From: Escherichia phage vB_EcoM_G17
Direction: 5' to 3' (one strand)
DNA length: 64,000 bases
Sequence record: MK327931.1
In this document: positions 4,608 through 41,966 of the stretch, one piece after another
Layout: each line of letters starts with the position of its first letter
How positions within the stretch are numbered: the first letter of the stretch is position 1
Position numbers and translations under genes: made by a program
Notes under the pieces: generated by a model
The model's input: only the letters and a program-made list of their open reading frames with translations
Database searches by the model: none
Told to the model about the DNA's origin: nothing

Positions 4608-4647
4608 GTATAAATCCCTTTATGATTAATATATACTATATTTATTC

Positions 4648-4956: not shown

Positions 4957-4995
4957 AGATTCAATCTCCATCATTAATATGGAGATATTTATCTA

Positions 4996-5346: not shown

Positions 5347-5369
5347 CCGTGTCAACTCCTTTAGATTGT

Positions 5370-6293: not shown

Positions 6294-6347
6294 TTCTCTT
6301 CTTCATTTATAATGTACGCGTATTATTACACAAAAAATGTGACATGT

Positions 6348-6382
6348 CAACACAAAAAAGAAAAGGGACTCCGAAGAGTCCC
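6348..6382 (-). terminator. Rho-independent terminator downstream of major capsid gene
   Basis: Perfect 7-bp stem gggactc/gagtccc (6365-6382) with UUCG tetraloop on the minus-strand transcript, followed by T-run (plus-strand A-run 6348-6364). Confidence 0.65.
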
Positions 6383-6426
6383 TATTGTTTTTAATTTCTT
6401 GATTAAATCTTTTAAATCGATTACAA

Positions 6427-7647: not shown

Positions 7648-7655
7648 TATTTATA
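7648..7655 (-). promoter_or_regulatory. T4-type late promoter box TATAAATA upstream of major capsid gene
   Basis: Plus-strand tatttata at 7648-7655 = TATAAATA on minus strand, ~45 nt upstream of the MCP ATG; a gp55-like sigma factor is encoded in the window. Confidence 0.6.
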
Positions 7656-8856: not shown

Positions 8857-8864
8857 TATTTATA
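8857..8864 (-). promoter_or_regulatory. T4-type late promoter box TATAAATA upstream of scaffold gene
   Basis: Plus tatttata 8857-8864 = minus TATAAATA, ~48 nt upstream of ATG at 8809; overlaps a 9-bp inverted repeat (atatctgta/tacagatat, 8835-8862). Confidence 0.55.
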
Positions 8865-14814: not shown

Positions 14815-14822
14815 TATAAATA
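14815..14822 (+). promoter_or_regulatory. T4-type late promoter box TATAAATA
   Basis: Exact tataaata at 14815-14822, ~35 nt upstream of ATG 14857. Confidence 0.55.
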
Positions 14823-15693: not shown

Positions 15694-15902
15694 TGCTTCT
15701 CCAGTCATCTCCTGAAGAAATACAAGAAGTACTGAAGGAGATAGAACTGAATAAGTCAGAAATCAAAAATGCACTAATGGAATGTTCTGTATATATGGAT
15801 AACATTGACTATGGAACACTCCTTAATATGCCATTAATAGATAGAGACTTATTAGTTAAGTCTTTTAATAAAAAAATTAAAAAACAAAACGAGAAGCACT
15901 AA
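15693..15902 (+). CDS. Small hypothetical protein, translationally coupled to upstream gene
   Basis: 69-aa ORF whose ATG overlaps the preceding stop (TAATG). Confidence 0.4.
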   Translation: MLLQSSPEEIQEVLKEIELNKSEIKNALMECSVYMDNIDYGTLLNMPLIDRDLLVKSFNKKIKKQNEKH

Positions 15903-16737
15903 TTTTCATATAGCCAGCACATTGTTGCTGGTTTTTTTGGTTTTAAACTACAGAATTATTTGAATTGAATTATGAAAGGATTAATTTTAATATTATTGGA
16001 TTCATCTAACTCATTTCATTCGTTAGCTGAAGAATATTCGTTACTACGTAACTCATATTCATTTAATTAAATTAATTATAAAGAACTTTAAAAGATTTAA
16101 TACTTGACGGGATTTGTTGAGGACATTTTCATCCCCCCGCAGGGGAATGAAGACAATAAAAAAGAGACAATGAAGTCTCTATTTCTTGACGCTGATGGTT
16201 TCAGCATTTATTGTATTGCGAATTTCTTAAAAATATATTAAGAACGAAAGCGGGTTGCTCTGTTTCTCTCTATCGCAGTCATGTGCAACGGTCGTCAGTC
16301 TTAATCATCCTGACACTCACCTGAAAGTCTATACAATCAAACTTCAGGCTGTTTATTAAAATCACTTAATAAACTCCCTTAGCAAATCTGGTAAGGTGCG
16401 ATCCTTATATGTCTATCGAGGAACTCTCTGTATGCTTATCGGAGTTCTTTATTGAGCCGCATTGCCGTGAGGGGTTCAAACTATGCCCACATCTAACGGG
16501 TTTCTTTTGCTCATCGCACTGTTGAACTGCTCATCTGCCATCTACATTTTCGATAGGATCAGGTTCTAATTTATATGCATTTCTGCATTCAACAGGATTG
16601 TCATTACTACAACAAACATTATAGCACAAACTTTAAAGTTGTCTCACTATTTTTATAAAAATATTCATTAAGTACTTAAAATATTGCAAATAACTAATCT
16701 ATAAATATTTTGATAACAAATAGTTTGGTGAGGAATT
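15903..16737. other. ORF-free ~0.83 kb intergenic region with multiple hairpins; candidate structured ncRNA, origin or regulatory region
   Basis: No ORF of 60 aa or more in any frame across 835 bp in an otherwise tightly packed genome; composition looks less AT-rich than flanks (by eye, not counted); hairpins at 16128-16151, 16163-16180, 16191-16205, 16320-16348; 12-nt palindrome aactttaaagtt near 16630. Confidence 0.4.
16700..16707 (+). promoter_or_regulatory. T4-type late promoter box TATAAATA upstream of endo VII-like gene
   Basis: Exact tataaata 16700-16707, ~30 nt upstream of ATG 16738. Confidence 0.55.
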
Positions 16738-17229
16738 ATGAAAAAAAGATTAAAAGATAGTAAGGATGCTGCAAACTATCGAAACGAATTACTAAAGAAA
16801 CAAAATGGAATAGATCCTATAATTAAAGAACCAATAACTAAACCAGTACTGGATCACTACCACTATGGTAACCAACATTGTAGACAAGTTCTTCAAAATG
16901 AAGTCAATGCTTGGGAAGGAAAGGTACAAAACAGCTTCAATCGATATATGAAGCACTTAACTGATAAACCATTATATGAGGTACTCAGAAATCTTGCTGA
17001 TTACTTAGAGCGTAATAACAGCATTCCTGACGATGAACAAGTTATACATCACACTGCACTAACTGTGGATGTTAATAAGTTTAAAAGGCTTCCAGCAACA
17101 CAGCAAAACGCGATTCTGGAAGGGTTAGGAGTTGTCCCTGGTAGTAACACTACTGCTCGTGTAAAGCAAGCCAGAAAGCTGATTAAGGACGGTAAATTAA
17201 ATATGGTTGATATAAAAAAAGGGAGCTAA
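16738..17229 (+). CDS. Endonuclease VII-like protein (T4 gp49 family), cysteine-less variant
   Basis: 163-aa ORF; VLDHYHY and VLQNEVNAWEGKVQNSF align to the endo VII catalytic region (HLDHDHE ... LLCNLCNAAEGQMKHKF) but the four zinc-ligand Cys positions are replaced; GGTGAGG RBS. Confidence 0.6.
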   Translation: MKKRLKDSKDAANYRNELLKKQNGIDPIIKEPITKPVLDHYHYGNQHCRQVLQNEVNAWEGKVQNSFNRYMKHLTDKPLYEVLRNLADYLERNNSIPDDEQVIHHTALTVDVNKFKRLPATQQNAILEGLGVVPGSNTTARVKQARKLIKDGKLNMVDIKKGS

Positions 17230-21349: not shown

Positions 21350-21357
21350 TATAAATA
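21350..21357 (+). promoter_or_regulatory. T4-type late promoter box TATAAATA
   Basis: Exact tataaata 21350-21357, ~36 nt upstream of ATG 21393. Confidence 0.55.
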
Positions 21358-21392: not shown

Positions 21393-22124
21393 ATGATTGA
21401 TCGTAGAATTCGATTACGACCTAAAGCCGCAGGTGCTAACTATGTATATGGTGATTTCGGGGATAGCTCCGAACCAACACTACTTTCGTTTCTGCGTCCA
21501 ACTAATGGGTTGGTTTGGACTGTAACACCAACAATTACTGAACAAAGGTCAATTCAGTATGAAACACAGTCTCCTATACATACCAACAGTAACTATAACA
21601 ACTATAAGAACACTACTAATACAGTTTTCACTATTCAGGGTGAATTTTATGCAAATACAGCAGCAGAAGCTATGTATGCGTTGGCATGTGTTCATTTTAT
21701 ACGTTCTGTTTCATTGATGGATTTTGGTAGACAAGCTGCTTCGGCTAATAACCCCGAACTCGCAATTGCGGGTGCACCACCACCAATCTTACTTCTAAGT
21801 GGATATGGTCGTTATACATATAATGATATTCCTGTTATTTTAAAATCTTATAATTTTACTTACCCAAATGATGTTTCTTATATTCAAGTTCCATTGAATA
21901 GTAGCGATAGTACTTTTAATTTATCCGACATGGATAGTAGAAAATTCTTCGAACAACTTAGAAGTACTGGATATATGAACCCACAAGATGAAGTTTGGGT
22001 TCCACAAAAAATCTCAGTTATGTTACAACTTGAAGAACAACCAACATCGGATTATATGACTAAAACGTTCAACCTCAATGCATTCAAACGTGGTGAACTA
22101 TTACGTAAAGGAGGATTCATTTAA
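21393..22124 (+). CDS. Baseplate / tail-tube associated structural protein (tentative)
   Basis: ORF track starts at 21303 but that lies upstream of the late promoter; ATG 21393 (MIDRRIRL...) has a GGAG RBS. Assignment from position in baseplate block only. Confidence 0.45.
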   Translation: MIDRRIRLRPKAAGANYVYGDFGDSSEPTLLSFLRPTNGLVWTVTPTITEQRSIQYETQSPIHTNSNYNNYKNTTNTVFTIQGEFYANTAAEAMYALACVHFIRSVSLMDFGRQAASANNPELAIAGAPPPILLLSGYGRYTYNDIPVILKSYNFTYPNDVSYIQVPLNSSDSTFNLSDMDSRKFFEQLRSTGYMNPQDEVWVPQKISVMLQLEEQPTSDYMTKTFNLNAFKRGELLRKGGFI

Positions 22125-22438
22125 TGTCCAACTATAGTCAATACTCACCTTACGCTAAGGTGAAACAAACATGGTATCTTGGGTATAATTTACCACGTGA
22201 TATTGTTCCGGCTGATACTGATGATTTTTATGAGATCCCATTGAAATATGAATATCAACCTTGGCGTTTAGCATACGAAATGTATGGTAATGAACGCTTA
22301 TATTATATTTTCGCATTGTTAAATCCAGACATACTAGGAGAAGATCCTATATATAATTTTAAAAGTGGAGTAACAATTAGAATACCAGCAAATCAAAGAG
22401 TACAGAATTATCTTAATGGTACTCGAAACATAGGCTAA
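22124..22438 (+). CDS. LysM-like baseplate protein (T4 gp53 / P2 gpX-like)
   Basis: 104-aa ORF; YEIPLKYEYQPWRLAYEMYGNERLYYIFALLNP resembles the LysM-like segment of gp53-class proteins; GGAGG RBS. Confidence 0.45.
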   Translation: MSNYSQYSPYAKVKQTWYLGYNLPRDIVPADTDDFYEIPLKYEYQPWRLAYEMYGNERLYYIFALLNPDILGEDPIYNFKSGVTIRIPANQRVQNYLNGTRNIG

Positions 22439-22449
22439 TGGAGTAACGT

Positions 22450-24699
22450 ATGGCAGATTTACGAAGTACAGTTGATAATTTTCAAAATGATATTACAAGT
22501 ATTACTGGTAAGGCTAAAACCACCACATCTAATGCACTTGATAGTTTGAAAGCTACAGCAAATACATTACAAAATGATGTAAAAACTATTACAAAAAATA
22601 ATTACAAAGCAAATGTAAGTAATGTAGTATCATTACCAAAACAAAGTGCTAGTGTTGATCAAGTTTATGAAGATCTCGATTTAAGTCAGTTTGTAATACC
22701 GTATGACAATAAATTATTGAAATATGATAACCCAACTTGGCACTTTTGTTTATTTGCCTTAGATAAAGATGATTTTAAAAACTTTTGGCTTTACCCAGAT
22801 GCAGAAGTGCAACGACATGTGATATCAGAAAGTGGTGTTACTGGCAAATATAATATCACTAGTGTACAAATGACACAAGCTGGACCTTCAACACCAGGAA
22901 TGACAACAAACTATTGTTTTAATACAGCAGTACTTAATATGTCTGAAAATAATAGTATGAGTCTATATGATGAATTAATTTCGTTAAGTAACAAACTTAG
23001 ATATCATAAATTTATGGACTTGCCATTGATCTTGGAATTAAAGTTTATTGGCTTTAATAAAAATGGAATACCTGAAATTATCCCAGAAACAACAAGACGC
23101 TGGTCAGTTAAAATTAATAGTGTTACTGCAAGTGCTTCACAAAGTGGTAGTACTATGATGTATACTATGAACTTAGTTCATAATAGAGCAGCTTTAGTTG
23201 ATAACATTGAATGGACCTTAAAAGAACCATTCAATTGTACTGCTGAAAACTTTGGTGACTTCTGCTTTGATTTAGAAGATAAATTAAATCAGATGGCTGA
23301 CCAACAATATGGTTATCTTAGATATAAATTTGGTGAATTATCCGAAGGTAAATTTTTCGAATTTAAAGTAGCACCTGATTTGCAAGATTTGTTTATAAAC
23401 TATGATTCTAAACAAATGGCAGAGGCCGGAACAACTAAAAGTGGTGCACAAGGTTCTAAAAACTTTTCATGGAACCCAAGTACTCCTATATCTCGAATTA
23501 TTGATGACGTTATTGATACATGTACTGTACAAGCCGATGATAGTACTAGTGTGCGTCAATTTGTAAACATTATACCAGTTAAACAATACGTTGGTTTTGA
23601 TAATTATCGTAATACTTCTGTGTATAAAGTAATTTTTTATATTGTTAGATTTAAAATAGGTGATATTGTTCATGAATCGGATTTACAACCTGAAAATTTC
23701 ACATTTGAGTACTTTTTTGAGAACGCAGAAAAATACGTAGATCCTAATGATCAAAAACCAAAAATAAACATGAAAACTTATAATTATCAATTTAGTGGGC
23801 TTAATAGTGAGATACTTGATTTGGATTTGAAATTTGATCAGCAATTTTTCGTAGCCACTACACGTAACCCTGGTCCGATACAAGATGTAGCGAACCATGC
23901 AGGTACACATACATCCCAAGAACTCAATATTCAAGGTGTACAATACAATAGTATACCAGACGCATGGGCAAAAACAAGTGATTTACGTGTAACTCGTGAT
24001 TTAGGAGGGATGTTAACACAAGCCCAACAACAATTGTTAACTGAAGTTGAAACTTTAGCAAAAAATCAAATGCAGGTTGGTAACGCAGAAGAACAAGACC
24101 GTTATAATAACTATCAAGTCAATGTTTTACCTCAATATATTGAAGATTATGTAACCACTTATGAAGAAAACGATGGTGGCACTGATGGTGTTGGTCACCG
24201 TTATGGTGAAGTGTTCACAATGCCAACCGAAGCAACTAACAATGAAACAACTTTATCCGCTTCGTTAAACGATAACAGCAGCACATATGAAATGGATAGA
24301 CGTAAAATACGTGACAACTATTACAATAGACCTTTTTTGTGTAAACTCGATATGCGTGTAGTAGGCGACCCGTACTGGTTAGGGTGGAGTGATTACTCTT
24401 ACTTACAATATCTAGAACAAGTAATTAATGGTGAAGATATGGAAATTAACCCAGATGATTATCATGTAGCAAATTATATAACATCTGAAGCGTATCTATT
24501 ACTAAAATTACAACCAGTAATATCAATAAATGATAACACTGGTGTTTTGGATATTAATACACCAACCACATTTAACCAAACAATTTATCGTGTTAATAAA
24601 ATTGTTCATGATTTTGGTGCAGGTGGTTCTTTTACACAACAAATTCAAGCTGCAATTGTAATTCGTGCACTCAAACGTCACGATAGTATAGTTGATTAA
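22450..24699 (+). CDS. Large baseplate structural protein (possible hub component, gp27 position)
   Basis: 749-aa ORF immediately upstream of and coupled to the gp5/gpV-like spike gene; no firm motif. Confidence 0.4.
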   Translation: MADLRSTVDNFQNDITSITGKAKTTTSNALDSLKATANTLQNDVKTITKNNYKANVSNVVSLPKQSASVDQVYEDLDLSQFVIPYDNKLLKYDNPTWHFCLFALDKDDFKNFWLYPDAEVQRHVISESGVTGKYNITSVQMTQAGPSTPGMTTNYCFNTAVLNMSENNSMSLYDELISLSNKLRYHKFMDLPLILELKFIGFNKNGIPEIIPETTRRWSVKINSVTASASQSGSTMMYTMNLVHNRAALVDNIEWTLKEPFNCTAENFGDFCFDLEDKLNQMADQQYGYLRYKFGELSEGKFFEFKVAPDLQDLFINYDSKQMAEAGTTKSGAQGSKNFSWNPSTPISRIIDDVIDTCTVQADDSTSVRQFVNIIPVKQYVGFDNYRNTSVYKVIFYIVRFKIGDIVHESDLQPENFTFEYFFENAEKYVDPNDQKPKINMKTYNYQFSGLNSEILDLDLKFDQQFFVATTRNPGPIQDVANHAGTHTSQELNIQGVQYNSIPDAWAKTSDLRVTRDLGGMLTQAQQQLLTEVETLAKNQMQVGNAEEQDRYNNYQVNVLPQYIEDYVTTYEENDGGTDGVGHRYGEVFTMPTEATNNETTLSASLNDNSSTYEMDRRKIRDNYYNRPFLCKLDMRVVGDPYWLGWSDYSYLQYLEQVINGEDMEINPDDYHVANYITSEAYLLLKLQPVISINDNTGVLDINTPTTFNQTIYRVNKIVHDFGAGGSFTQQIQAAIVIRALKRHDSIVD

Positions 24700-24712
24700 G
24701 GAATAAAATATT

Positions 24713-27376
24713 ATGGCAGATACAAGTAAAAAGTATGCACAACAGCAGTTGGGTCGTTTTGACCCATCTTATCCGCAGTTAGCAACTGTTATGGATAACA
24801 GAGATCCAACTAAATCAGGAAAACTGAAAGTTTGGATACAAGGTTCTCAAAGTGATAAAAACTCAAAAGAATCATGGATAGAAGCATCTTACATGTCTCC
24901 TTTTGCTGGTAAAACACCAGGTATTCCAAGTGCTGATGCATATGGTCAATATCCAAAAGGATACGGTTTTTGGGCAGTACCACCAGACGTAGGGTGTACA
25001 GTTGTTGTAATTTTTGCACAAGCCCGTACATTCCAAGCATATTGGATTGGTTGTGTATATGACCAGCGTATGAATACTATGGTTCCGGGTATGGCAACTG
25101 AAGTAAGTAATTATGGTGGAACTGATATGCCACTTCCTGTTACTGACTATGATCGTAACACTATCACTACCGATATGCAAGACAAATATGCTAACGTTCC
25201 AATCATCGCAGGTCTTAAAAAGCAAAACCTTTTATATGACGAAGAAGCTGGGTTGGCGAATCGTAGTAGTACTCGACAAACCACAAGTACTGTATATGGA
25301 ATGTCATCACCACGTGGAAATAGTTTCATTATTGATGATGGATATACTGAAGAGGAATTAACTGCACCCACATGGGATCAAGACCCAGATGGATATCAAG
25401 ATACGCAATTTAATAACCCAGTAAACGATACCCGTGTTGGTTCTCGTAAAAATGAAGGTGTTGTAATAAAAACACGTAGTGGTGCACAACTTCTTTTATC
25501 AGAAGCAACTGGTGATGTTCTTTTAATTAACCGTGACGGTACTGCACGTATTAAATTCACTGGTGAAGGTGATATTGACATGCATTGTGACAAGAATATC
25601 AATATTCGTGCAGGACAAGATATTAATATTACGGCTGGACGTTCATACAACATTGAAACCGGACAAGATTTCAATGCACGCGTTGGTGCAAATACTAAAT
25701 TAGATCTAATTGGTGCTCTTGATGCAAAAGTTGGTGGACAAGTGGTGGTTAATTCAGGTGCTGACCTTCGTTTAGTTACGGCTGCATCATTACGTATGCA
25801 AAGTGGTAGCAGTACTGATATTACGGCTGGTTCAAATGCTTCTATTTCTGCCGCAACATCTGCAAACCTAATTGGATCATCATCAGCAATTATTAGTGGT
25901 GGTGGTCAAACATTAACAGTTAATAGTGGTGGTAATAGCGGTACTGCTGAATTTACTGCACCAAACTTTAGAACACCATCTGCTGGTCTTAATGAACACA
26001 TTCATGATATCGCTGCATGGGTTAACGCTGAAAATCATGGTAGTTATGTTGAACCACCAAGACAAGGTGGTGGAAGTGGTTCTAGTGAATCACCAGTACA
26101 ACCACAACCAGCAAATGATGTATCACCAGAATTACCCGTAGCACAAGACACTGAAGCTGTTCAGTTTGTTAACTATACATCAGAAACTGAACAAGTTCAA
26201 TCACAAGATTTGATGACATCTGATCCTGGGATGACTGGATATAGTATTACATATGAAGGTTTACATATGTTAATGCCATGTAGCGGTACTATTCGACAAT
26301 ATGGTTACTGGGGGAAAGGTGTTCCAACACAAAGTGGAGGAAAGGCAGACCGTTCAGGTTGGGAAATACAATGTAAAGGTGATGTAGTTGCACCAGATGG
26401 TGGTGTGGTAGTAATTACTAATGGTGCTCTTTTAATACAACATAAGTCTGGATATAAATCTATTTTTTATAATATTCAATCTGATTTATTAAACAAAGAT
26501 GTTGTTCAAAAAGGTCAAGTTGTTGGAAAAGCAAATGGTGTCATACAGTTTGAAATTCGTGTTACATCAGCAAATGTTCTTGGATTCAGTGGTTCTGTTG
26601 ACCCAGGATTATTTTATGCTTCACAAACAGGAACAGGGTCTGATGCGGCGAATAAAACATTAATTGGTGGTCAAGCAACTAATCAATCTGCTCCAAAAGC
26701 AGTTGTACAACCTTCAGTTGATAGTGATGAATTGGTAGTTACAACAAAAATCAAAACGATAGGTACTGGATATTCTCAACGTGGTTCTCGTCATGTGCCT
26801 CGTAGGAGAAGAACACAGAGAAGTGGAGCTTCAACAACTCCGGTGGAGCAACCTACCTATAATATTGGAAATGTTGATAAAACTGCAATCGATTGGAAAG
26901 TTGTTCCAGGTGATGCACAATTTATTTCTGAATTAAAAGAATATGAAGGTACATTACAATACCAACAAGCAAAAGGATATTATCGTAATGGTAAATTCTG
27001 GCGTTATTTGGATAGTCGTGGGTATCCAACTATTGGTTATGGTCACTTGATTATTAGTGGTGAAAACTTTTCAGATGGAATAACTGAACAGCAAGCCAAC
27101 GATATGTTAGTTCGTGATAGTAGTAAAGCTATATATGATGCTAAATCAATTTATGCTTCATATAACATGAAAACACCTTATTTGGCTCAACAAGTACTAT
27201 GCCAAATGGTATTCCAGATGGGTAAAGGTGGGGTACTTAAATTTAAAACTATGTTGTCTGAATTAGCTAAAGGTAATTATAAACAAGCTGCTGCTCAAAT
27301 ACGTAATTCAGCTTGGTATCGCCAAACTACTCGCCGTGCTGAGTTAATGGCTCGTCGTTTAGAGGCATGTCAATAA
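24713..27376 (+). CDS. Baseplate central spike (gpV / gp5-like OB fold + beta-helix) fused to a degenerate M23/LytM-like domain and a C-terminal T4-type (GH24) lysozyme domain
   Basis: 887-aa ORF. N-terminal WIEASYMSPFAGKTPG...YGFWAVPPDVGCTVVVIFAQ matches the gpV/gp5 OB-fold consensus; residues ~280-400 are short beta-helix repeats; a mid region has M23 spacing (LLIQHKSGYKSIFYNI...KGQVVGKANGVIQFEIRV) but VIQFE replaces HLHFE; the C-terminus (EGTLQYQ...TIGYGHLI...QMVFQMGKGG...WYRQTTRRAELMARRLE) is a T4 lysozyme fold with Glu/Asp/Thr at catalytic positions. Confidence 0.75.
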   Translation: MADTSKKYAQQQLGRFDPSYPQLATVMDNRDPTKSGKLKVWIQGSQSDKNSKESWIEASYMSPFAGKTPGIPSADAYGQYPKGYGFWAVPPDVGCTVVVIFAQARTFQAYWIGCVYDQRMNTMVPGMATEVSNYGGTDMPLPVTDYDRNTITTDMQDKYANVPIIAGLKKQNLLYDEEAGLANRSSTRQTTSTVYGMSSPRGNSFIIDDGYTEEELTAPTWDQDPDGYQDTQFNNPVNDTRVGSRKNEGVVIKTRSGAQLLLSEATGDVLLINRDGTARIKFTGEGDIDMHCDKNINIRAGQDINITAGRSYNIETGQDFNARVGANTKLDLIGALDAKVGGQVVVNSGADLRLVTAASLRMQSGSSTDITAGSNASISAATSANLIGSSSAIISGGGQTLTVNSGGNSGTAEFTAPNFRTPSAGLNEHIHDIAAWVNAENHGSYVEPPRQGGGSGSSESPVQPQPANDVSPELPVAQDTEAVQFVNYTSETEQVQSQDLMTSDPGMTGYSITYEGLHMLMPCSGTIRQYGYWGKGVPTQSGGKADRSGWEIQCKGDVVAPDGGVVVITNGALLIQHKSGYKSIFYNIQSDLLNKDVVQKGQVVGKANGVIQFEIRVTSANVLGFSGSVDPGLFYASQTGTGSDAANKTLIGGQATNQSAPKAVVQPSVDSDELVVTTKIKTIGTGYSQRGSRHVPRRRRTQRSGASTTPVEQPTYNIGNVDKTAIDWKVVPGDAQFISELKEYEGTLQYQQAKGYYRNGKFWRYLDSRGYPTIGYGHLIISGENFSDGITEQQANDMLVRDSSKAIYDAKSIYASYNMKTPYLAQQVLCQMVFQMGKGGVLKFKTMLSELAKGNYKQAAAQIRNSAWYRQTTRRAELMARRLEACQ

Positions 27377-27388
27377 ATATTTTAGTAC

Positions 27389-27396
27389 TATAAATA
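27389..27396 (+). promoter_or_regulatory. T4-type late promoter box TATAAATA upstream of endolysin gene
   Basis: Exact tataaata 27389-27396, ~17 nt upstream of ATG 27413. Confidence 0.5.
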
Positions 27397-27412: not shown

Positions 27413-27901
27413 ATGAGTAAATGGGAAATTAAAAATACAGATGAGCAATTTTTTAAGGAAATTAAAGAATTTGAAGGAACTATTGCTTATCAGAAAAAAC
27501 TTGGTTATTTTAAAAATGATAAGTTTTGGGTATATAAAGACAGCTTAGGTCTTGATACAATTGGCTATGGTCACCTAGTTTTACCTGGTGAAAATTTCAA
27601 GAATGGTTTAACAGAAGCACAAGCTGACCAACTTCTTCTTAAAGATGCTCAAACTGCGTACAATGATGCAAAATCAATTTATGAACAATTTGGTATGACC
27701 GCACCTATACAGGTTCAACGTGTATTATGGTTGATGGTATTCCAGATGGGCAAAACCAAAGTTTTAAAATTTAAAAAAGCAATGACCGCATTAGGTAAGG
27801 CTGATTATAAAACTGCTGGTAAGGAATTGCGTGATAGTACATGGTATAAACAAACCACTTCAAGAGCGGAAAAGATGGCACGTATTGTTGAATCCGTATA
27901 A
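27413..27901 (+). CDS. e: Endolysin, T4-type lysozyme (GH24)
   Basis: 162-aa ORF; EFEGTIAY...DSLGLDTIGYGHLV...LWLMVFQMGKTKV...WYKQTTSRAEKMARIVE matches T4 lysozyme catalytic Glu/Asp/Thr and core; clearly paralogous to the C-terminal domain of the upstream spike protein; GAGGA RBS. Confidence 0.85.
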   Translation: MSKWEIKNTDEQFFKEIKEFEGTIAYQKKLGYFKNDKFWVYKDSLGLDTIGYGHLVLPGENFKNGLTEAQADQLLLKDAQTAYNDAKSIYEQFGMTAPIQVQRVLWLMVFQMGKTKVLKFKKAMTALGKADYKTAGKELRDSTWYKQTTSRAEKMARIVESV

Positions 27902-27916
27902 TAAAGGAAATAGTCA

Positions 27917-28312
27917 ATGGCAGTTGTTTTTAAAGGTTTTTCTACCCCAGTAGTGGGTAGAACTGAAACATTGTATGATAGTGAATTGGTTCGCCAAGAT
28001 TTAATGAATCATTTCAATACAAAAAAAGGCGAAAGAGCATTTGATGCTGACTATGGTTTTATTGCATGGGATTTGCTGTTTGAATTGGAAGGTTATAATA
28101 CTATCAACCTTTTGGAAGCAGATGCCCGTAGAATAATTAGCTTAGATCCACGCTTAAATCTTAAGAAATTGCAAATTTCAAGAATAGAATATGGATACCA
28201 AATGAATATTGTATTACAGTACGTAGTATTGGATACATTAGAAGAACTTACTATTGTATTCGATGCAAGAAGTAATAACAGAATGGCAACATATTCAGTA
28301 TCGTCTTTATAA
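27917..28312 (+). CDS. Baseplate wedge protein gp25-like (GPW/gp25 family)
   Basis: 131-aa ORF; GERAFDADYGFIAWDLLFE parallels T4 gp25 GSRPFDPEFGCDLSDQLFE. Confidence 0.7.
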   Translation: MAVVFKGFSTPVVGRTETLYDSELVRQDLMNHFNTKKGERAFDADYGFIAWDLLFELEGYNTINLLEADARRIISLDPRLNLKKLQISRIEYGYQMNIVLQYVVLDTLEELTIVFDARSNNRMATYSVSSL

Positions 28313-28316
28313 TTAC

Positions 28317-28345
28317 AAAAGCACTCTTCGGAGTGCTTTTCTTTT
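28317..28345 (+). terminator. Rho-independent terminator after gp25-like gene
   Basis: Stem agcactc/gagtgct with UUCG tetraloop (28320-28337) followed by ttttcttttt. Confidence 0.65.
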
Positions 28346-28413: not shown

Positions 28414-31400
28414 ATGTCACAACAAAAAAGGCAATCAAATTTATACGCTGGTGAGGATTGGACTCAAGTATATGAAAGTTTTTATAAAATCAATCTTACA
28501 GCTTATGACTTCGATACTATCCGTCAGAGTATGATTGATTATCTACGTGCAACTTACCCAGACTCATTCAACGACTGGATCGAAAACGACCAGTTTATTT
28601 TTATTTTAGATACGATTTCTATGCTAGGGCAGAACTTGGCATTTCGTATGGATTTGAACACACGTGAAAACTTTTTAGATACTGCAACTCGTCGTGCATC
28701 AGTACTAAAACTAGCTAAAATGATTTCTTACTCACCACGCCGCTCATATCCAGGTCGTGCAGTTGCTAAATTAACCGAAATTAAAACAAACCAAGATGTT
28801 CGTAATAGTTTTAATGAATCATTAAAAGATAAAATCATTCGTTGGAATGACCCGATGGATGCTAACTGGTATGAAAACTTCATTCTAGTAATGAACAGTT
28901 CATTTGTCAGTACTAACCAATTTGGTAATCCAGTCAAGCGTATTGATGTTAATGGTGTCTCTCGTCAACTATATCGAATGAACACCATCCCAATGACAGC
29001 ACCCAGTATTCCATTTATTGCAACTGTCAATGGTGAATCTATGACATTTGAAGTAGTGAATCCTGATATTACGTCTGTTGGTGTTGAAGAACGACATCCA
29101 GAACCACAAGAGCAAAAATATATTGTTTATCAAAATGATGGTAATGGATTTAGTTCACCAAATACTGGTTTTTTTGTATATTTCGTACAAGGTACATTGA
29201 CATATCAAGATTATCAATATGCTATCCGTGAAGAGAACCGTATACAAGATATTAACGTTGATAATATCAACGAAACTGATGTATGGGTTCAAGAAATAAA
29301 TGAAGATGGTATTGTTCGTACCAAATGGACAAAAGTTCCATCAATGGAAAGTATTGCATATAACACTGTTAATCGTCAATTAAAAACAATTTTTGCTGTT
29401 ACTACTCGTGATAAAGATCAAATAACAATTAAGTATCCAGACTCAAGAAGTGGTGTTGTTCCCCGTGGGACGTTCCGCGTATGGTATCGTGTTAGTAATG
29501 GTAAAACATATAACATTAAAACTTCTGAAATTCAAAACAAAAGCGTAAAATATACATATCGTACAAAAACACAGTCAAGTTATGAATCTAGTACATTGGA
29601 TATACGTTTTTCATTACAATATGAGTCCGACCGTGCACAAAGTGCAGAGACTATTGAGCAGATTAAAGCACGTGCACCACAAATGTACTATACACAAAAC
29701 CGTTTTGTCAATGGTGAAGATTATAATATTGCACCACTTAGTTTAGGCAATACTGTACTTAAATCTAAAGCTATTAATAGAATTTATAGTGGACAATCAA
29801 GATTTATTGATATTAATGATCCTACTGGTAAGTATCAAAATACCGATGTTTTTAGTGATGATGGTGCATTATATCAAGAAAACACACAATTTAATAGATC
29901 ATTATTGCTACCAACTACAAAAACAAATGCTAGTATTGTTATTGACAATATTCAACCATTGATTGGTGAAAATGCGGTAATACAACGTTACCAAGCGTTT
30001 CCATCAAATACAATTGGTATTGAAATACAACAAGCATGGACTCCGGTATACAATTCAAATTATACAACTAACACATATGGTAGAATTTTGGGTTCATCTG
30101 GTACAGTTTATGGTTCATATCAGGTTGGTACTCTAATTAAATTTTCTAATTCTGGAACTACTATATGGGCTAGTGTAGTTAGTGTATTGGATAATGGATT
30201 TTATGTACTGAGTACATCGGTTCCAAGTGGAATGCAAGCCATAGAGTACATTTTACCATATAGAACTAGATTTAACTCGGTTGAAGTTCAAGCAATTTCT
30301 GCTATGCTAGATAAAAAAACTGATTTTGTTATTGTACATGACAAAGAAACGACATCATGGGTTCCTATTGAAGTAAGTACCAATGATGATACTATTGTAT
30401 ATAATGGTAATGAAGTTTTAATTATAATTAATGTAAAATATACAGCAGAAACTTGGGAATTTGATGCTAACGGTATTGAATATATTTTTGTGGGTGGAGA
30501 AAAAGTAAGATTTTACTTTGTATCATCTAAAAAAATTACTGATATTAGTACTGGTACAGTTCAAAGTGATAAGATTGAAATTTTATCATCTAACACTACT
30601 AGTAGTAGTAATTCAGGATTGACAAGTAATATAGATTTTCAAATTTATGACACAATTCAACAAGAGAATGGCTATCTAGATGGTTCTCGTGTTATTGTTA
30701 CATCTAGGAAAGTAGATAGTAATGGTATACCATTGGAACCAAACCAATTTAAAGAAATTGTTCCTACTTGGACTGGAACCGATGCATTAAAATATGGTGG
30801 TATTTTGGTATTTCAGGAAAATAGTGATTTCACTATATCAGTACTGTCGTTACCAAATGATACCTTCACACTTCTTGATTCATCGTGGTCTTATACAATG
30901 GAACAAGCCTTGGCAGAGCCGAATGCATATAAAAGAACTGAATTTGTTAGAAATAACGCAATTCGTTCAACCACATTGAGTGGATTATATAGTAAAGGTT
31001 CTGGATTTTTAGTTGGTTTTAACTATGATGGTAAATATTATTTTATTGAACAAACAGTTGGTAACAACAATGATCGTTTAGGACAGCTAATTAGTAATTT
31101 AACTTATTCCGATGATACTGGCACTGTTAGTCCTGAATTGGCTTTTTATCGTGCAATTAATAACATGGGAACTAATGCTGACGAGAATCAGAAGCTAGAT
31201 TATTATGGATACAAAGATGTTACTTCACAGTACACTGTTAAAACTAATGCACGTACTAGTATAGACTTCCATTGGAAACACTATGCACCTGACGACAATC
31301 GCATTGATCCTAGTAGAACAAACTTAATTGATATGTATGTATTAACCAATTCATATAAAACTGAAGTTGACGTTTGGTTGAAAAATAATGCTGTTGGTAG

Positions 31401-31875
31401 TATTCCTAAACCACCTACATCGGTTGAATTGAAAGATATGTTCAAAGATGTTGAACAAAAAATAGTCATTAGTGATAGTATTATTTGGCATAGTGCTGAG
31501 TACTTACCTTTATTTGGCAACAGTGCTGCTGAAGATTACAAAGCTGATTTTAAAGTAGTGAAATTACCAAACAGCACAATGAGTGACGATGAAATTCGTC
31601 AAAATGTTATAGCATTAACTAATGAATACTTCAATGTTGACAACTGGGATTTCGGTGAAAGTTTCTATTATACTGATTTGTGTACTTACATACACTCACA
31701 GTTAGGTAGACATATTAGTACCATTGTTATAGTTGCACAAAATCCAAATTCAAAATTTGGCTCTCTATTTGAAATCCCTTCACGTTCAGACCAAATATTT
31801 TTGAGTACTGCATCTGTTGAAAATGTTCAAATTGTTAACTCACTAGCTAAAAGTAATATTAATATCGGTTCTTAA
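28414..31875 (+). CDS. Baseplate wedge protein gp6-like (baseplate J family), extended
   Basis: 1153-aa ORF; the N-terminal region (DFDTIRQSMIDYL...ILDTISMLGQNLAFRMDLNTRENFLDTATRRASVLKLAKMISYSPRRSYP) follows the gp6 / baseplate J N-terminal pattern; AAGGAA RBS. Confidence 0.7.
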   Translation: MSQQKRQSNLYAGEDWTQVYESFYKINLTAYDFDTIRQSMIDYLRATYPDSFNDWIENDQFIFILDTISMLGQNLAFRMDLNTRENFLDTATRRASVLKLAKMISYSPRRSYPGRAVAKLTEIKTNQDVRNSFNESLKDKIIRWNDPMDANWYENFILVMNSSFVSTNQFGNPVKRIDVNGVSRQLYRMNTIPMTAPSIPFIATVNGESMTFEVVNPDITSVGVEERHPEPQEQKYIVYQNDGNGFSSPNTGFFVYFVQGTLTYQDYQYAIREENRIQDINVDNINETDVWVQEINEDGIVRTKWTKVPSMESIAYNTVNRQLKTIFAVTTRDKDQITIKYPDSRSGVVPRGTFRVWYRVSNGKTYNIKTSEIQNKSVKYTYRTKTQSSYESSTLDIRFSLQYESDRAQSAETIEQIKARAPQMYYTQNRFVNGEDYNIAPLSLGNTVLKSKAINRIYSGQSRFIDINDPTGKYQNTDVFSDDGALYQENTQFNRSLLLPTTKTNASIVIDNIQPLIGENAVIQRYQAFPSNTIGIEIQQAWTPVYNSNYTTNTYGRILGSSGTVYGSYQVGTLIKFSNSGTTIWASVVSVLDNGFYVLSTSVPSGMQAIEYILPYRTRFNSVEVQAISAMLDKKTDFVIVHDKETTSWVPIEVSTNDDTIVYNGNEVLIIINVKYTAETWEFDANGIEYIFVGGEKVRFYFVSSKKITDISTGTVQSDKIEILSSNTTSSSNSGLTSNIDFQIYDTIQQENGYLDGSRVIVTSRKVDSNGIPLEPNQFKEIVPTWTGTDALKYGGILVFQENSDFTISVLSLPNDTFTLLDSSWSYTMEQALAEPNAYKRTEFVRNNAIRSTTLSGLYSKGSGFLVGFNYDGKYYFIEQTVGNNNDRLGQLISNLTYSDDTGTVSPELAFYRAINNMGTNADENQKLDYYGYKDVTSQYTVKTNARTSIDFHWKHYAPDDNRIDPSRTNLIDMYVLTNSYKTEVDVWLKNNAVGSIPKPPTSVELKDMFKDVEQKIVISDSIIWHSAEYLPLFGNSAAEDYKADFKVVKLPNSTMSDDEIRQNVIALTNEYFNVDNWDFGESFYYTDLCTYIHSQLGRHISTIVIVAQNPNSKFGSLFEIPSRSDQIFLSTASVENVQIVNSLAKSNINIGS

Positions 31876-31924: not shown

Positions 31925-34900
31925 ATGAATGAACGAATTATATGGAGTCCAAAAATGACTAATAATTTTAAGTTTCAACCTACACAGATGGCTGAAGCAG
32001 TACAGAAGAAGCTTTTTATTAAAAGATTGCCTGAGTGGATGCAAGGCTTAGAAGATATTCAAAAAGTCAGTGATGATGTTATTCAACAATGGTTTAATCC
32101 GGCTGAAAACGAATTAGTTGACGGCTATATTGGTGATATGGGTTCTCCTGCCGCTGCTGGTAATATCTTCTTACATGAAAGTACTGTAGCACGTCAACTT
32201 TATCAGTTGTCCACTGCTTACGTCTCAAAAAATGATGATTCGACAATTCGTTCAATTCAATTTTATGATGATCTAGTTGGATACATGAATCATTATGGAG
32301 CACTAACCGATAATGAAAGCCGTTTGTTCAACGGTAAGTTTTATGCATGGACTCCAGCTATTAACCCAAATAAAATGAACAATTTTAGCTCATATCTTTG
32401 GGATACTAAAAACTCTTATAATATTACTTCACCTGATTACATTGTAATGGAACGTGGAGCACTTAATGGTAATACATGGTCACTACAAAACTTTTGGTAT
32501 ACTTTAGGTGAAACATTAGAAGATGGCTCAATATTAACTGAAGAATTAATGCAAGATTCACGTTTTATTCGTGCACGTGCACCAATTATTGAATATAATA
32601 AAAATATTGAGCTAATTAACTACGGTACAAAATTCCGTGGAACTGTTGATCTGTTCTCTGATATTATTAAACCTGAAGATATCGTTCAAAAAGATATTAA
32701 TAGTGGTATACGTATTGATGGTATTATTCCGCAAGATGGAATGCGTATTCTATTCACCAGTATTGGTAACAATGGTGAAAACAATAGAATTTATAATGTA
32801 TATGTGAAAAAAATGCAAGATGGTACTCGTGTTTATGGTTTAGCACTAGATCCAGAAGAAGAAACCGAATCACGCCCAAGTGGTGAACCTCAAGATGGTG
32901 ATGTTGTTCTAATCACTAAAGGTAATGAGTATGGTAATAGTTCTATGTACTGGAATGGATCTTTGTGGGTTCGTGCACAATCAAAAACTAGTGTTAACGT
33001 ATTCCCTAAATTCCAACTTTATGATCGTAATGGTATCAAACTTGACAACAGTACTACATATCCATCAAGTAACTTTAAAGGTTCAGAGTTGTTTGGTTTT
33101 AAAATAAATTACAACTATGCAACTGATAGTGTATATGGATATAACATTGAACTTGGTGATTATAATTATTACATTTATGAAAACTTTTTACAATCCCAAC
33201 GTTATACCTATGACCATCTTGGAAAAGAAGTTGAAATTGATGGTTTATACTATTATAACATTATTGATGAAAATAATGAAATGAATCTTCAAACCGATTG
33301 GGTTCGTTCAGAAGAGTACTCTAAACAATTTGTAAAACAAACTCCACAAGTCCAACGTACTGATATGTATCGTGTATTCAGTACTGTTTATGATATGGAA
33401 GTTTTTAAAGAACCAGTTGATGGTATGTATGCATATGTTATTGAAGTTGATAGAACATATCAGTACTATAAAGCTGACCGTGAAACTTATCTAGATTGGC
33501 ATCCAATTACTGGTGATGGTGTTCAGATTGTAAAATATGACCATACATTCGAATTGGCACAAAAAGTTTTAGATAATGATTCTGATATTATTGAAGTTGT
33601 GGTTGATGGTGTTGATGTGTCCAAATATACCAAAAATGTTTCAAAAGGTCAAGTACAAAGCATCACTCTAGATAGTACTGTAGAATTGGATGAAGATTCT
33701 GTTATTCAAATTAGAACTTATAGCAGTACTGTAACTCCTAATAAAGAATTAGGTGCATATGAAGTTCCAATCAACCTACAAAATAACCCATATAATTCTA
33801 ATATTATATACATTAACCAAGGTGACTACACTTTACATTTTCAGGATATTATTCAAAAGAACATTACACGTGGTTCTTCTGATGATTTCAATGACTATGA
33901 AGAACGTTTGGCTAAAGGATTGGTTAATAATGGCGTAGGTACTAAAATTATCCAAAATGAAGCATCTATGCTTCCATTGATGGCACATACTGCAAATGAA
34001 GATATTGATTTGTTTGAAGCAACTATGTTTATGCAATCTGAATATTTTAGATTCATTAATAAATTTAATACACAAATGCTTCGTATGTATGATGAAAATC
34101 CATCAGACTTTTTACAAAATAGTGCTGCAAACATTGTTGATGCAATTTTAACTACTATTAATATGGGACGTGATAGTTCATTCCCATTCTATTATGATAA
34201 TGTTGGAAGTACTTCTGGATTCATTCGTGCATTTATACCACCAACACCACAGTTCTTAGGTATTCTTCAAGCATATGTACCAGAAAAAGCGACATTCCTC
34301 ACTGCTGGTAGTAAACCAAGCTGTTATAACATCAGTCATACTGGTATTATTTCCAAAGCATACCGTGTTATCAATGGTGTTGATAAAATGGATGATGTTG
34401 TATATGAATTAGAAAATAGAATTTTTAATAGTATTGATAATAAATTCAAAGATGTTGATTACGTACCAGTATTGAATAGTGATGACCTTTTCCCTACACC
34501 ATATTTCACTAAAACTGAATATAGTGCTGAAGAGAAACAAACATTATTACTACGTGGATACATTAACTTCACCGCAACTAATGGTATCAGTAATAGTACA
34601 CATGATTATGATCCTAACAATTGGAGAACTTGGAACTATACTGGCACTTATTATGTAGTTAATGGTCAAAGTACTGAAATTCCTGCACGTGGTTCATGGC
34701 GTGCCATTTACACTGACCAATATGGTACATATCGCCCAGCTACCCATCCGTGGGAAATGTTTGGCTTTACACAACGTCCAACTTGGTGGAACCAAGAATA
34801 CGAACCAACGGCTGTTCAAGTTGGTGAACGTGATAGTGATGTTGTATATGTATATGAAGCACTTGTTATGAATGAGCAAGGTGATTTAGTTCCTAGTGGT

Positions 34901-37900
34901 CTTTGGGATATTGACGGAACTATTGGAGATAGCAGTACTGGAACTATTTTATTTGGTGATCGTCGTGGTCAATATGACAAATATAAAAGATTTGGTGTAC
35001 AGCCATTCAAAATTACAAAAACTGGAAATAAAACATCTTCTGGTATTGATATTTGTGTGGTTGAATATATTGCACCTGAAATTTTAGGTTTAGTGTCTGG
35101 ATCTTTAAATCATAGAGCAGAACCTTGGACATATGGTGATATGGGTGACATGGAATTTACATACATGAACACTACATTGTTTGCATATGACCAAATGATG
35201 CTTTTGTATAAAGCTAAACCAGCACAATTTGCTAACTATTTCTGGGATACCCGCAACGATAACTTAAAAGAAGTATTCACTGATGGTTCACAATTCCTTT
35301 ATGGTGATACACGTAAGCGTATTAATTTTGATAAAAATACAGTAGTTCATGGTGAAAATAGCACAAGAACAATTGGTTATCAAATGTTTGTAAGTGACCA
35401 TTTGATGTATCAAAATAAAAATATTACCACCAAGTATGGGGATGTAGTTCGTTCTTCTTATATAAATGTTGGTCATAAAATTGGAGGATTTACTAAAGCA
35501 GATCAGCTAACATTCAATGCTAAATCTTTCGGTCTTATTTCACAAGAAAACCAAACCATTGGTCTTGTTCGTTCTAATAATATCCGTGATGAGCAAATGA
35601 GTGCGATCAAAATTACTTGGAATGGTAGTGCATATCAGATTGATGGATATGATCTAGTTGGTGCTAAATTTAAATATAAACTTCCAGTAAAAAATGGTAG
35701 AAAAGTAACTCTTAAATTGGAAAACCGTAATGTTGTTCATTATAATGAATGGAAGTCTGAAGCTTCAATTGAATATGGTAAAGTTTTCAATAGTTACCAA
35801 GAAGTTTATACTTTTATTTGTGGATATGGTGAATATCTTAAAGAACATGGTTGGATTTTTGAAGATGTAAATGATAGTGGTGCTCAACAAGATTGGAACA
35901 CTATTGCTAAAGATTTCGTGATCTGGAGTCAGAATTCTCTAGTAACTGGTGAATTTATTTCTTGTACCCCAAGTGCTGCAAACGCTAAATTTGGGGCAGA
36001 CTTTGGTTCAGTACAATCTATTACGCAAAATAATGGTGGTGTATGGTCATTACTTGATGATAATAACCAAGGTATTCGCCAATATGAAATTGAAACTTCT
36101 CGTATTGGAAATATCTTCACTGTTAGAACTTTAGAATCTAATAAACGCATTGCATTGATTCGTTTAAGTTTGTGTTCATATGAACATGCTGTTATTTTTG
36201 ATGATAAAACTATTTTTGGTGATTACATTTATCAGCCAACATATGGTTCTATTCAAGAACTAATTAAAATGTATGGATATATTACTGGTTCATGGACTGG
36301 TCGCCTACAAGCTCCTGGATTTATTATCTTGGAAGCTGGAACACTACCATCATTTGAAAAATTAGTGTCGGATTTCCAACATTATTATGATAGTGAAACT
36401 CCAGTAAGTGATGTACAATTACAAGAGTTGTCAAACCATTTGATTGGTTATCAATCTCGTGATTATCTACAGCGTATGATTAGTAGTGATGTTAGTCGTG
36501 TTGATTTCTATAAAGGATTCATTCACGATAAAGGTACTAACCAAGTTTTAGAACGTGTACTTCGTGTTTCTAAATCATATGACACTGATGAATATAAAGC
36601 ATTACAAGAATGGGCATTTAAAATTGGTACATATGGTAATATTGATGGTAAGAAAAACCTTCAATTTAAACTAATCAATGACCAATTTAAACAACAACCT
36701 CAAATGGTTTCTTTTGATGTAAATGCAACTTCAAATGGTAATGGTAATCATATTGTATACTTCGGTGAGCAAGGTAAAGATCCTCGTTGGATTACACGTC
36801 CAAATGGTAAGTTCTCATTCCCAATGCGTAGTGGAAGAAGTGAAAACATCCAACTTCCAGATATTGGTCCAGTAACATTGGATGAAGTATCGTACACAAC
36901 AAAAGATTTCAGTACTGCATATAATGACCGCATAACTTATACTAATGGTAAAGGTGAAAATCCTGAATCTGTGTGGATGTTTAAAGACGGTAATGGTTTG
37001 TGGAACATTTTTGAATTGGTTGATACTAATGTACAAATGGTTTCTATAACACCTATTGAAAATACCGATGTGTATGCTGAACAATTTTGTAAAGTAACTT
37101 TAACTGATAATGTACCACTTGAAGATGGTGATTATTATTATTTTGTTGATGAAACTAACTTTATGCCAGATACTTTAACAGTAGAAAGTCAATATTATAC
37201 TGCTGGTTCTGATCCTAAAGTTATGGTAGTTCCATTTGACACTTCTATTGATATTGAATTTACTGATCCAGATACACGTCCACGTTTGTATCGTTATGTA
37301 TCACGTTTTGCCAGTACTGATGATCGTCAAGCTTACATTGACAAGAAATATAGTTTTAAAGCACCACAAAGTACTTTATTTGATCGTCCAACGACATATG
37401 ATGAACGTACTAACATTACTGAGCTATATCTAAACGTTTATGACCCAATTAATGGTGTTATTCCAGGTGCGGCTATGCAAAACGTAACATATACTTCACC
37501 AGTTGATCCTGCACAGTATAATAGTAATGGAGAGTTAATCCAGGCTTGGGGTGCTGATAAAGTTGGTCAAGTATGGTGGAACACTAGCACTGCATTTTAT
37601 TTGGATTATACTCGTGCAATTTATGACGCAGACGGTAATGTTGATATTGATGCAACCAATGAATACAAACGTTACAACTGGGGCCGTTTGTTACCACATA
37701 GTACCATTGATGTGTTAGAGTGGGTTTGTTCACCAGTTGAGCCATATAACTGGGACAAATACTGTAAAGATGTTGCTAAGAAAAACAAAAATAATACTAT
37801 GTATCTACCAAGTGGAACTGCACTTGAAGATAATTATAGTACATTTTTGGAATATGATAGTTCAACTGATAGTTATGTAACAAAATACTATTTCTGGGTA

Positions 37901-41928: not shown

Positions 41929-41966
41929 AAAAAAGGAGAGCATTATGCTCTCCTTTTCTTTTTTTA
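41929..41966. terminator. Bidirectional rho-independent terminator between convergent giant ORF and ClpA-like gene
   Basis: A-run, 8-bp stem ggagagca/tgctctcc (41935-41953), then T-run; works on both strands. Confidence 0.65.

Follow-up and report, generated by a model that had tools for sequence, protein, structure and literature searches.

In phage T4 the central spike protein gp5 combines an OB fold, a GH24 lysozyme and a triple-stranded beta-helix in a single chain, which is cleaved between the lysozyme and the beta-helix; its gene follows gene 53 and precedes gene 6, the tip is a separate PAAR protein (gp5.4) and a paralogous soluble lysozyme is encoded elsewhere, by gene e. Evolved VgrG proteins from type VI secretion systems (T6SS), for example VgrG-3 of V. 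cholerae, carry a cell-wall-degrading cargo on a linker at the C-terminus of a beta-helix needle. [quoted passage not shown] Each of these systems shares features with the product of the gene described here, which lies at positions 24713-27376 of a 64,000-nucleotide stretch (the window) of Escherichia phage vB_EcoM_G17, sequence record MK327931.1. We consider it likely that the product of this gene is the central spike in the baseplate of a RaK2-like jumbo myophage, with a dead LytM domain and a lysozyme tethered as cargo beyond the needle.

Over the 3.2 kb that were queried, the window agrees at every position (100% identity) with Escherichia phage Sharanji (OR545507.1), an Asteriusvirus of the PBECO4/121Q group whose genome measures 350 kb. 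An earlier, sequence-only reading of the window had placed the spike gene at 24713-27376 and a neighbouring gene at 27413-27901, and had proposed the domain order OB fold, beta-helix, M23-like domain and lysozyme. The open-reading-frame calls (plus strand, ATG start and 887 residues for the spike, 162 residues for the neighbour) agree with both sets of coordinates and the order is borne out by Pfam, profile and fold searches; what that reading overlooked is an invariant HxH motif that closes the beta-helix. The parts of the gene are as follows.

24713..27376, plus strand: spike gene (Sharanji_gp372, 887 residues), whose product is likely the central spike of the baseplate and bears cell-wall cargo at its C-terminus
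24770..25066, plus strand: N-terminal OB fold, residues 20-118 (Pfam Phage_base_V)
25067..25456, plus strand: conserved neck between the OB fold and the beta-helix, residues 119-248 (no family assigned)
25457..25972, plus strand: triple-stranded beta-helix needle of the VgrG/gp5 type, residues 249-420 (DUF2345, PDB profile match)
25973..26050, plus strand: HxH region, residues 421-446, candidate iron-binding histidine cage closing the needle (H429 at 25997-25999, H431 at 26003-26005)
26051..26245, plus strand: first tether, residues 447-511, Gly/Ser/Pro-rich, with a conserved strand and helix (478-499) and a disordered linker (501-511)
26246..26677, plus strand: degenerate LytM/M23-fold domain, residues 512-655 (profile, fold and catalytic-position tests)
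26678..26869, plus strand: second tether, residues 656-719, with the strand ELVVTTKI, the basic motif YSQRGSRHVPRRRR and a disordered linker (701-717)
26870..27376, plus strand: C-terminal GH24 (T4-type) lysozyme, residues 720-887, Glu745/Asp767/Thr773 (Pfam, hhalign)

As the sequence-only reading had pointed out, this order departs from that of T4: OB fold, lysozyme and helix in gp5, but OB fold, neck, helix, LytM domain and lysozyme here. In addition, gp5 has neither a LytM domain nor an HxH motif. In a full-length AlphaFold2 model, calculated for the monomer with 84 sequences (predicted local distance difference test, pLDDT, 79.8), the OB fold, the neck, the helix with its HxH motif (pLDDT 80-92), the LytM domain and the lysozyme form ordered blocks.

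The N-terminal half of the protein resembles known needles. Residues 23-116 match Pfam Phage_base_V with 29.8 bits against a cutoff of 23.8 (E = 8e-7), and the mean pairwise identity of the OB fold among orthologues is 66%. By analogy with T4 gp5 and VgrG, this domain presumably docks the spike on the hub. The neck that follows, at the position where the lysozyme sits in T4 gp5, is conserved to a similar degree (mean pairwise identity 67%, 24% of columns near-invariant) and modelled with pLDDT values of 57-86; its best Pfam match is weak and below threshold (DUF6229, E = 0.045). Residues 278-329 match DUF2345, the VgrG beta-helix family (34.7 bits against a cutoff of 30.7, E = 2e-8), and a profile of the beta-helix from seven orthologues finds P. 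aeruginosa VgrG1 in the PDB (4uhv, E = 9.8e-7), together with 9gtr and 4mtk. Such a needle should be trimeric. The match of the helix to VgrG1 and DUF2345, and the position of the cargo after it, are points in common with the evolved VgrG proteins; the spike differs from them in that it has no fused gp27-like module and starts with the OB fold, is encoded in a phage baseplate operon rather than a T6SS cluster, and carries GH24 and a dead LytM domain as its cargo.

The M23/LytM fold of the middle domain is secure. The Pfam model Peptidase_M23 (PF01551) scores 22.0-22.6 bits on the spike sequence, below its cutoff of 28.7; some orthologues have precomputed PF01551 matches, and M23 is the top Pfam family in all seven of the phage orthologues searched (best E = 1.2e-6). 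When a 29-sequence profile is compared with the PDB the top 20 matches are all M23-fold chains, with LasA at 2.5e-6 and SpoIIQ at 6.4e-6, and further matches include pseudoalterin, zoocin A, DipM, Csd2/TagE, ShyA and EnvC; a seven-sequence profile likewise places only M23-fold chains at the top of the list. An AlphaFold2 model of residues 500-655, made with 29 diverse homologues, has a pLDDT of 92.1 and a predicted template modelling score of 0.85, and a Foldseek search of the PDB with this model returns M23/LytM structures for all of the top 50 matches, led by EnvC (3.9e-6) and DipM (6.5e-6). A known fold other than M23, which would have contradicted the first assignment, did not emerge from either the domain or the fold searches.

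To this fold corresponds no recognizable active site. Residues at the M23 positions were counted in a set of 87 orthologues, for which 86 full-length orthologues (36-93% identity) were aligned, with the following result.

His of HxxxD: Arg547 in the spike; R in 71, H in 5 and N in 4 of the 87
Asp of HxxxD: Glu551 in the spike; I in 50, E in 9, T in 8 and D in 2
Catalytic His (equivalent to LasA His81): Asn587 in the spike; D in 37, G in 31 and N in 13
First His of HxH: Ile611 in the spike; His in none
Second His of HxH: Phe613 in the spike; His in none

The statement that VIQFE replaces HLHFE is therefore accurate for the spike, and the absence of His at both positions extends to the whole set. 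The counts also agree with the earlier suggestion that the domain is non-catalytic, the M23 zinc and catalytic residues having been lost. The residues that are kept include W550, H577, E614, R616 and D630-P-G-x-F634, most of which are fold residues that the dead domain of SpoIIQ also retains. Judged by sequence, the M23 domain has lost its catalytic function throughout the family. It might be argued that the domain is a peptidase with a non-canonical active site, which would make the spike a two-enzyme lysin like phi29 gp13, a tail protein that joins a lysozyme to an M23 endopeptidase. Against this, all 87 orthologues lack the HxH of M23, and nearly all have other residues at the remaining zinc-ligand and catalytic-His positions; H577 aligns with the non-catalytic His71 of LasA; and E614 and R616 are the structural residues of 'HFE.R', kept in the dead SpoIIQ domain. 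In phi29 gp13 itself the M23 domain is catalytic; that protein is not a beta-helix spike and has the opposite domain order. We regard a cryptic peptidase as very improbable.

The dead domain is nevertheless constrained: its mean pairwise identity is 56.3%, compared with 54.5% for the lysozyme, and 14% of its columns are near-invariant, compared with 11%. A domain that lacks zinc and catalytic residues yet is as constrained as the lysozyme is most likely to be a binding or regulatory module. This is also the most reasonable reading by analogy, because the best structural matches, EnvC, DipM and SpoIIQ, are themselves non-catalytic LytM domains. EnvC, NlpD, DipM and SpoIIQ act as regulators in the bacterial periplasm or the forespore and have anchors of the coiled-coil, LysM or membrane type, whereas the spike domain is part of a phage virion protein and has no known partner.

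The resemblance invites a more specific proposal, namely that the dead LytM domain mimics EnvC or NlpD and, once in the periplasm, binds AmiA/B/C or other autolysins and relieves their auto-inhibition, so that host cell-wall hydrolases would be recruited at the entry site alongside the phage lysozyme. On this analogy a LytM domain delivered at the needle tip might switch on host amidases or autolysins, or gate the phage lysozyme. If true, the spike would be a virion protein that hijacks host cell-wall hydrolase control. We think such mimicry improbable, both in its mechanism and in its consequence for the host enzymes.

The distribution of the domain is narrow. When the LytM segment was run exhaustively with phmmer against 1.8 billion cluster representatives, it was found in nine clusters only, seven of which are spikes of ~870-984 residues, the others being an 84-residue fragment and a weak, repeated match in a 1772-residue protein; this search gave no bridge to active M23 enzymes. 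With the middle fragment as the query, a database of 5.8 billion proteins yielded one partial protein, and a full-length query was needed.

GLNEHIHDI is the motif with which the beta-helix ends. All 87 orthologues have H429 and H431, the sole near-invariant columns of residues 421-446; position 433 is His in 70 of the 87 and H442 is kept in 81. The form found in most orthologues is GLNSHIHYH, and that in shorter relatives of the spike is GLQGHTHKIASGSSAG. The context resembles the apex of P2 gpV, LHTHKHPGDSGG, the gpV chain ending in GKVLHTHKHPGDSGGTTGSPL. According to work from the Leiman laboratory (10.1101/2023.02.25.529910), HxH is the sole universally conserved sequence feature of central spikes. 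Three copies of it (His197 and His199) form an octahedral cage around Fe at the gpV apex, and an HxH near the C-terminus denotes a spike with its own apex, spikes without HxH carrying a PAAR tip. In phage fibres this histidine cage also occurs in mid-chain. We therefore regard the HxH of the spike as a candidate iron-binding histidine cage that would close the needle, a proposal drawn from the conserved motif. No PAAR domain was found in ten small open reading frames of the window, to which that search was confined. A tblastn search of phages with the HxH segment recovered the same family only, plus a non-significant match to a 'baseplate spike' (E = 7). We discarded one apparent piece of evidence: the end of the VgrG1 (4uhv) alignment, which runs over the HxH, is an artefact in which the motif pairs with the crystallization His-tag LEHHHHHH.

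The C-terminal domain is apparently an active lysozyme, to go by its sequence. Pfam Phage_lysozyme matches residues 765-882 (45.2 bits against a cutoff of 22.3, E = 1.5e-11), phmmer matches the domain to structures of T4 gp5 and T4 lysozyme (T4L), and hhalign aligns it with T4 gp5 at 99.3% probability (E = 1.5e-20). The Glu/Asp/Thr triad noted in the first reading appears to be retained: hhalign pairs Asp767 with gp5 Asp193 and Thr773 with gp5 Thr199 (Asp20 and Thr26 of T4L), and a global MAFFT alignment pairs Glu745 with T4L Glu11. In the AlphaFold2 model Glu745 ends the first helix of the domain. Within the 87 orthologues Glu745 and Asp767 are each conserved in 86 and Thr773 in 61. Thirteen residues are inserted between the catalytic Glu and Asp, and for this reason the Glu lies outside the local profile alignment, which begins after it; the insertion is a feature of the spike lysozyme that gp5 does not share and that recurs in the neighbouring lysozyme. 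The insertion is compatible with activity, since LysUE1, an orthologue of that neighbour, shares it and is muralytic.

The domains beyond the helix are joined by two tethers. Residues 501-511 of the first have pLDDT values below 50, and the corresponding segment varies from 5 to 52 residues with 29% identity among orthologues; residues 701-717 of the second also fall below 50, with a length of 8-30 residues and 20% identity. Between the LytM domain and this second linker, residues 676-700 (26738-26812) comprise the strand ELVVTTKI and then the basic segment YSQRGSRHVPRRRR. The family form of the basic motif is YSQRGS(R/K)H.PRR, in which G691 is invariant and R690 and S692 are near-invariant; this stretch could be a docking strand or a processing site. 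For lysin engineering, the C-terminal lysozyme and the tethers offer natural domain boundaries.

A mechanism can be proposed along the following lines. Three chains would form the needle, with their OB domains seating it on the hub, and the three HxH motifs would form a histidine cage that locks the distal end of the helix, as at the P2 gpV apex or in phage fibres. Each chain would continue past its HxH as a flexible leash bearing the dead LytM domain and the lysozyme. Contraction of the sheath would drive the needle through the outer membrane and bring the tethered lysozymes into the periplasm, where they would open the peptidoglycan locally for the tail tube, the job of the internal lysozyme in T4 gp5. 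The LytM domain might hold the lysozyme packed and silent on the virion, or might anchor it to peptidoglycan peptide stems or to a partner protein. The spike would then be the cell-wall-breaching device of a clade of 350-kb phages (Asteriusvirus, RaK2-like) that have been proposed for therapy.

Several points weigh against this model. The function given to the LytM domain is taken wholly from analogy. In the literature HxH marks an apex near the C-terminus, and in P2 gpV it lies 12 residues from the end and forms the tip, whereas 456 residues follow it here, so that the position typical of a spike apex is not observed. Most jumbo myophages encode a PAAR protein (jumbo-phage comparative-genomics paper), and one is possible elsewhere in this genome. 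The catalytic Glu of the lysozyme is aligned in the global alignment only and not in the local profile alignment. The remaining points concern the virion. Orthologues of the spike have been found in virions by mass spectrometry (phAPEC6 gp241, CBB_240 and that of GAP32), with a coverage of 4-10% and without peptide positions, and RaK2 gp078 was undetected by this method (RaK2 paper, 2013); the published mass-spectrometric data thus lend no support to the C-terminal half staying attached.

These observations bear on the possibility that the cargo is cut from the needle during assembly or infection, at the basic motif around residues 686-700 or in a tether, and then rides non-covalently or is released. 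The conserved YSQRGS(R/K)H.PRR with its invariant G691 lies beside a disordered linker, a prohead protease gene is located within the window, T4 gp5 offers a precedent in its cleavage between lysozyme and beta-helix, and the failure to recover RaK2 gp078 would fit. In RaK2, however, the proteins that were detected ran at their predicted masses and no processing was reported (RaK2 paper), and phAPEC6 lists the full 95.9 kDa, a calculated mass. Cleavage is in our view unlikely, and we continue to prefer a cargo that remains tethered to the needle.

The spike belongs to a family that is already present in public databases: it matches PHROG 13211 end to end, and Sharanji annotates both gp372 (the spike) and gp373 (the 162-residue protein) as 'lysozyme'. 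The unusual architecture remarked on in the sequence-only reading is real, but as an observation it is not new. It was in print in 2013 for RaK2 gp078, described as having 'a very unusual domain composition', with a lysozyme at the C-terminus and a beta-helix that has an unmatched region on either side (Simoliunas et al., 2013), and again in 2017 for CBB_240, for which a gp5 OB domain and an M23 hit in the centre were reported and a contrast was drawn with T4 gp5 (Buttimer et al., 2017, PMC5259590); the supplement to that paper gives an HHpred match to VgrG1 at 1.7e-36. The additions made here to a known, database-annotated family are incremental. In the library searched we found no paper that calls the M23 domain degenerate or names the HxH in RaK2-like spikes. 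The additions are that the M23 active site has been lost throughout the family although the domain is strongly constrained, that an HxH lies in mid-chain, a map of the tethers, an age for the lysozyme duplication, the swapping of cargo in distant relatives and a correction concerning the likely endolysin. A literature search turned up no RaK2-like baseplate studied by cryo-electron microscopy; for phAPEC6 there is a tail map at ~25 Å. The Sharanji paper lists the structural spike (WNN14653.1) as a lysis protein, and this labelling, like 'lysozyme', is probably wrong.

Identity to the spike is 58-99% for the named phages for which it was measured and 36-93% for metagenomic orthologues. The spikes of RaK2-like phages and CBB belong to the same family end to end, with the same domain order and neighbourhood, and nothing structural distinguishes them. 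In about 30 proteins that are more distantly related, the OB fold and the helix are all that is shared, and other cell-wall hydrolases come after the helix: the swapped cargo is GH19 (chitinase-type) in P0100, P0108 and P0111 and GH24 in P0096 and P0116. These replacements indicate that 'needle first, enzyme last' is a recurrent design in the lineage, like that of the evolved VgrGs. On a more speculative reading, which we think improbable, such spikes would form a class in which exchangeable cargo (GH24 or GH19) is threaded beyond an iron-locked apex. Several of the metagenomic relatives P0088-P0117, including a group of ~555 residues, have the C-terminal motif TYEPCPEHE(N/H).

The spike gene lies among baseplate genes, in the following order.

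22124-22438, plus strand: gp53-like wedge (Pfam Phage_gp53, E = 1.1e-4)
22450-24699, plus strand: virion structural protein of 749 residues in the slot expected for the hub (its phAPEC6 orthologue, gp240, is found in the virion)
24713..27376, plus strand: spike gene
27413..27901, plus strand: free-standing GH24 lysozyme of 162 residues (Sharanji_gp373), paralogue of the spike C-terminal domain
27917..28312, plus strand: gp25-like baseplate wedge gene, last of the transcription unit (Pfam GPW_gp25, E = 1.2e-8)
28414-31875: gp6-like wedge gene (Pfam/PHROG matches)

This order is kept in RaK2, GAP32, XaC1, Hallingskeid and fHe-Yen9-04 and parallels T4 genes 53-5-(5.1 to 5.4)-6; the small lysozyme and the gp25-like gene occupy the slot that gp5.4 has in T4. 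The two genes upstream of the spike match PHROG 7145 (gp53-like) and PHROG 11190 (749 residues). The 749-residue protein has no sequence match in the PDB, so that we take it to be the hub from gene order only.

The small lysozyme is a paralogue of the C-terminal domain of the spike, as had been proposed (53% identity over 158 residues, E = 3e-57), and has the triad and the 13-residue insertion in common with it. The sequence-only reading attributed the pair to a local duplication. Gene duplication is supported by the paralogy, but we reject a recent event on the strength of a neighbour-joining tree (200 bootstraps) built from the C-termini of seven spikes, six free-standing copies and T4L, in which the copies group by type and not by phage. 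The Vibrio spike, from a phage without a free copy, falls outside both groups. The bootstrap values are as follows.

Two-copy clade excluding the Vibrio spike: 191/200
Free-standing copies monophyletic: 146/200
Spike C-terminal copies monophyletic: 107/200

From this tree of sequences we read a single duplication, later than the split of the Vibrio lineage but earlier than the diversification of the RaK2-like phages sampled from enterobacteria and Xanthomonas, in which both copies have been retained since. The Vibrio phage, 2.275.O, is a marine jumbo phage that encodes a full spike with LytM domain and lysozyme (3022-6056) and no free-standing lysozyme; a 123-residue reading frame directly follows its spike gene. 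The LytM segment of this spike is ~31% identical, the beta-helix is shorter and the segment after the HxH is longer.

Whether the small lysozyme is also the endolysin of the phage, so that the locus would couple a structural and a lysis lysin as the sequence-only reading supposed, is a separate question. T4 with its paralogous gp5 and gene e lysozymes offers a precedent. The protein is soluble, its triad is intact, and its purified orthologue LysUE1 is muralytic in vitro, with ethylenediaminetetraacetic acid (PMC12805682). It is also unconfirmed as a virion component: the CBB authors state that the small lysozyme is unconfirmed as a structural protein in RaK2-like phages (PMC5259590) and the phAPEC6 virion table does not list the 162-residue protein. 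On the other hand, the RaK2 paper (2013) described three paralogous lysozymes, ORF029, ORF073 and ORF078, and in the first of these (RefSeq gp506) the lysozyme domain is preceded by a hydrophobic anchor at the N-terminus and by a LysM-like region. The CBB orthologue of ORF029, CBB_187, is the endolysin predicted by Buttimer et al. (PMC5259590). By tblastn, nearly all of the group's listed genomes have three GH24 places. The third one in Sharanji, orthologous to ORF029 and CBB_187, lies at 263027-263896 (minus strand) of OR545507.1, ~23 kb beyond the window, which itself holds no third copy; this likely endolysin is annotated 'hypothetical protein'. Furthermore, the small gene keeps a fixed place between the spike gene and the gp25-like gene in those enterobacterial and Xanthomonas genomes that were sampled, has no holin or spanin beside it and is missing altogether from the Vibrio relative. 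The designation of the neighbour as 'the endolysin' is accordingly unproven, given its position in the baseplate cluster and the published prediction for the third paralogue, and we rate it as possible but on balance doubtful. The small lysozyme is a soluble protein encoded in the baseplate cluster and presumably expressed late, and it may act in lysis or in assembly.

The late expression is suggested by TATAAATA, a T4-type late-promoter motif, which is found at 27389..27396 (plus strand) in the 36-nucleotide gap 5' of the small lysozyme gene and is followed by a GAGGA ribosome-binding site. It occurs 37 nucleotides upstream of the RaK2 small lysozyme as well, so that the motif in Sharanji and RaK2 counts in favour of an endolysin, and it is missing from four other genera. 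Four of six related phages (GAP32, XaC1, Hallingskeid and Yen9-04) have a gap of 12-35 nucleotides between spike and small lysozyme, which contains a ribosome-binding site only. In RaK2 four small hypothetical reading frames, two per strand, lie between the spike and the small lysozyme (5845-7338).

The window contains six exact copies of TATAAATA, at 7648-7655 (minus), 8857-8864 (minus), 14815-14822 (plus), 16700-16707 (plus), 21350-21357 (plus) and 27389-27396 (plus), all of them intergenic and 17-48 nucleotides upstream of a correctly oriented gene: the major capsid gene, gp357, baseplate gp363, gp365, the start of the spike operon and the small lysozyme. The chance expectation is 11 +/- 3, and the motif thus seems to be avoided elsewhere. 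A mechanical list of reading frames starts the gene at the head of the operon at TTG 21303, and the copy at 21350-21357 falls inside this extension, which supports the annotated ATG at 21393. The unit made up of spike, small lysozyme and gp25-like gene showed no internal plus-strand terminator, and after its last gene, at 28317-28340, comes a terminator-like hairpin (10 pairs and a T-run). A scan for sigma-70 promoters gave fewer matches than shuffled sequence and was uninformative.

Three further features of the surrounding structural region may be recorded. Directly after the gp6-like wedge gene there is a reading frame of 9972 nucleotides (31955-41926, plus strand; 3323 residues, 'hypothetical protein'), and the phAPEC6 orthologue of its product, gp245 (382 kDa), is a virion protein. 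A gene for a ClpA-like AAA+ ATPase (41964-44252, minus strand) lies within the structural region. Finally, an 836-bp stretch without an annotated gene separates gp364 and gp365 (15902-16738).

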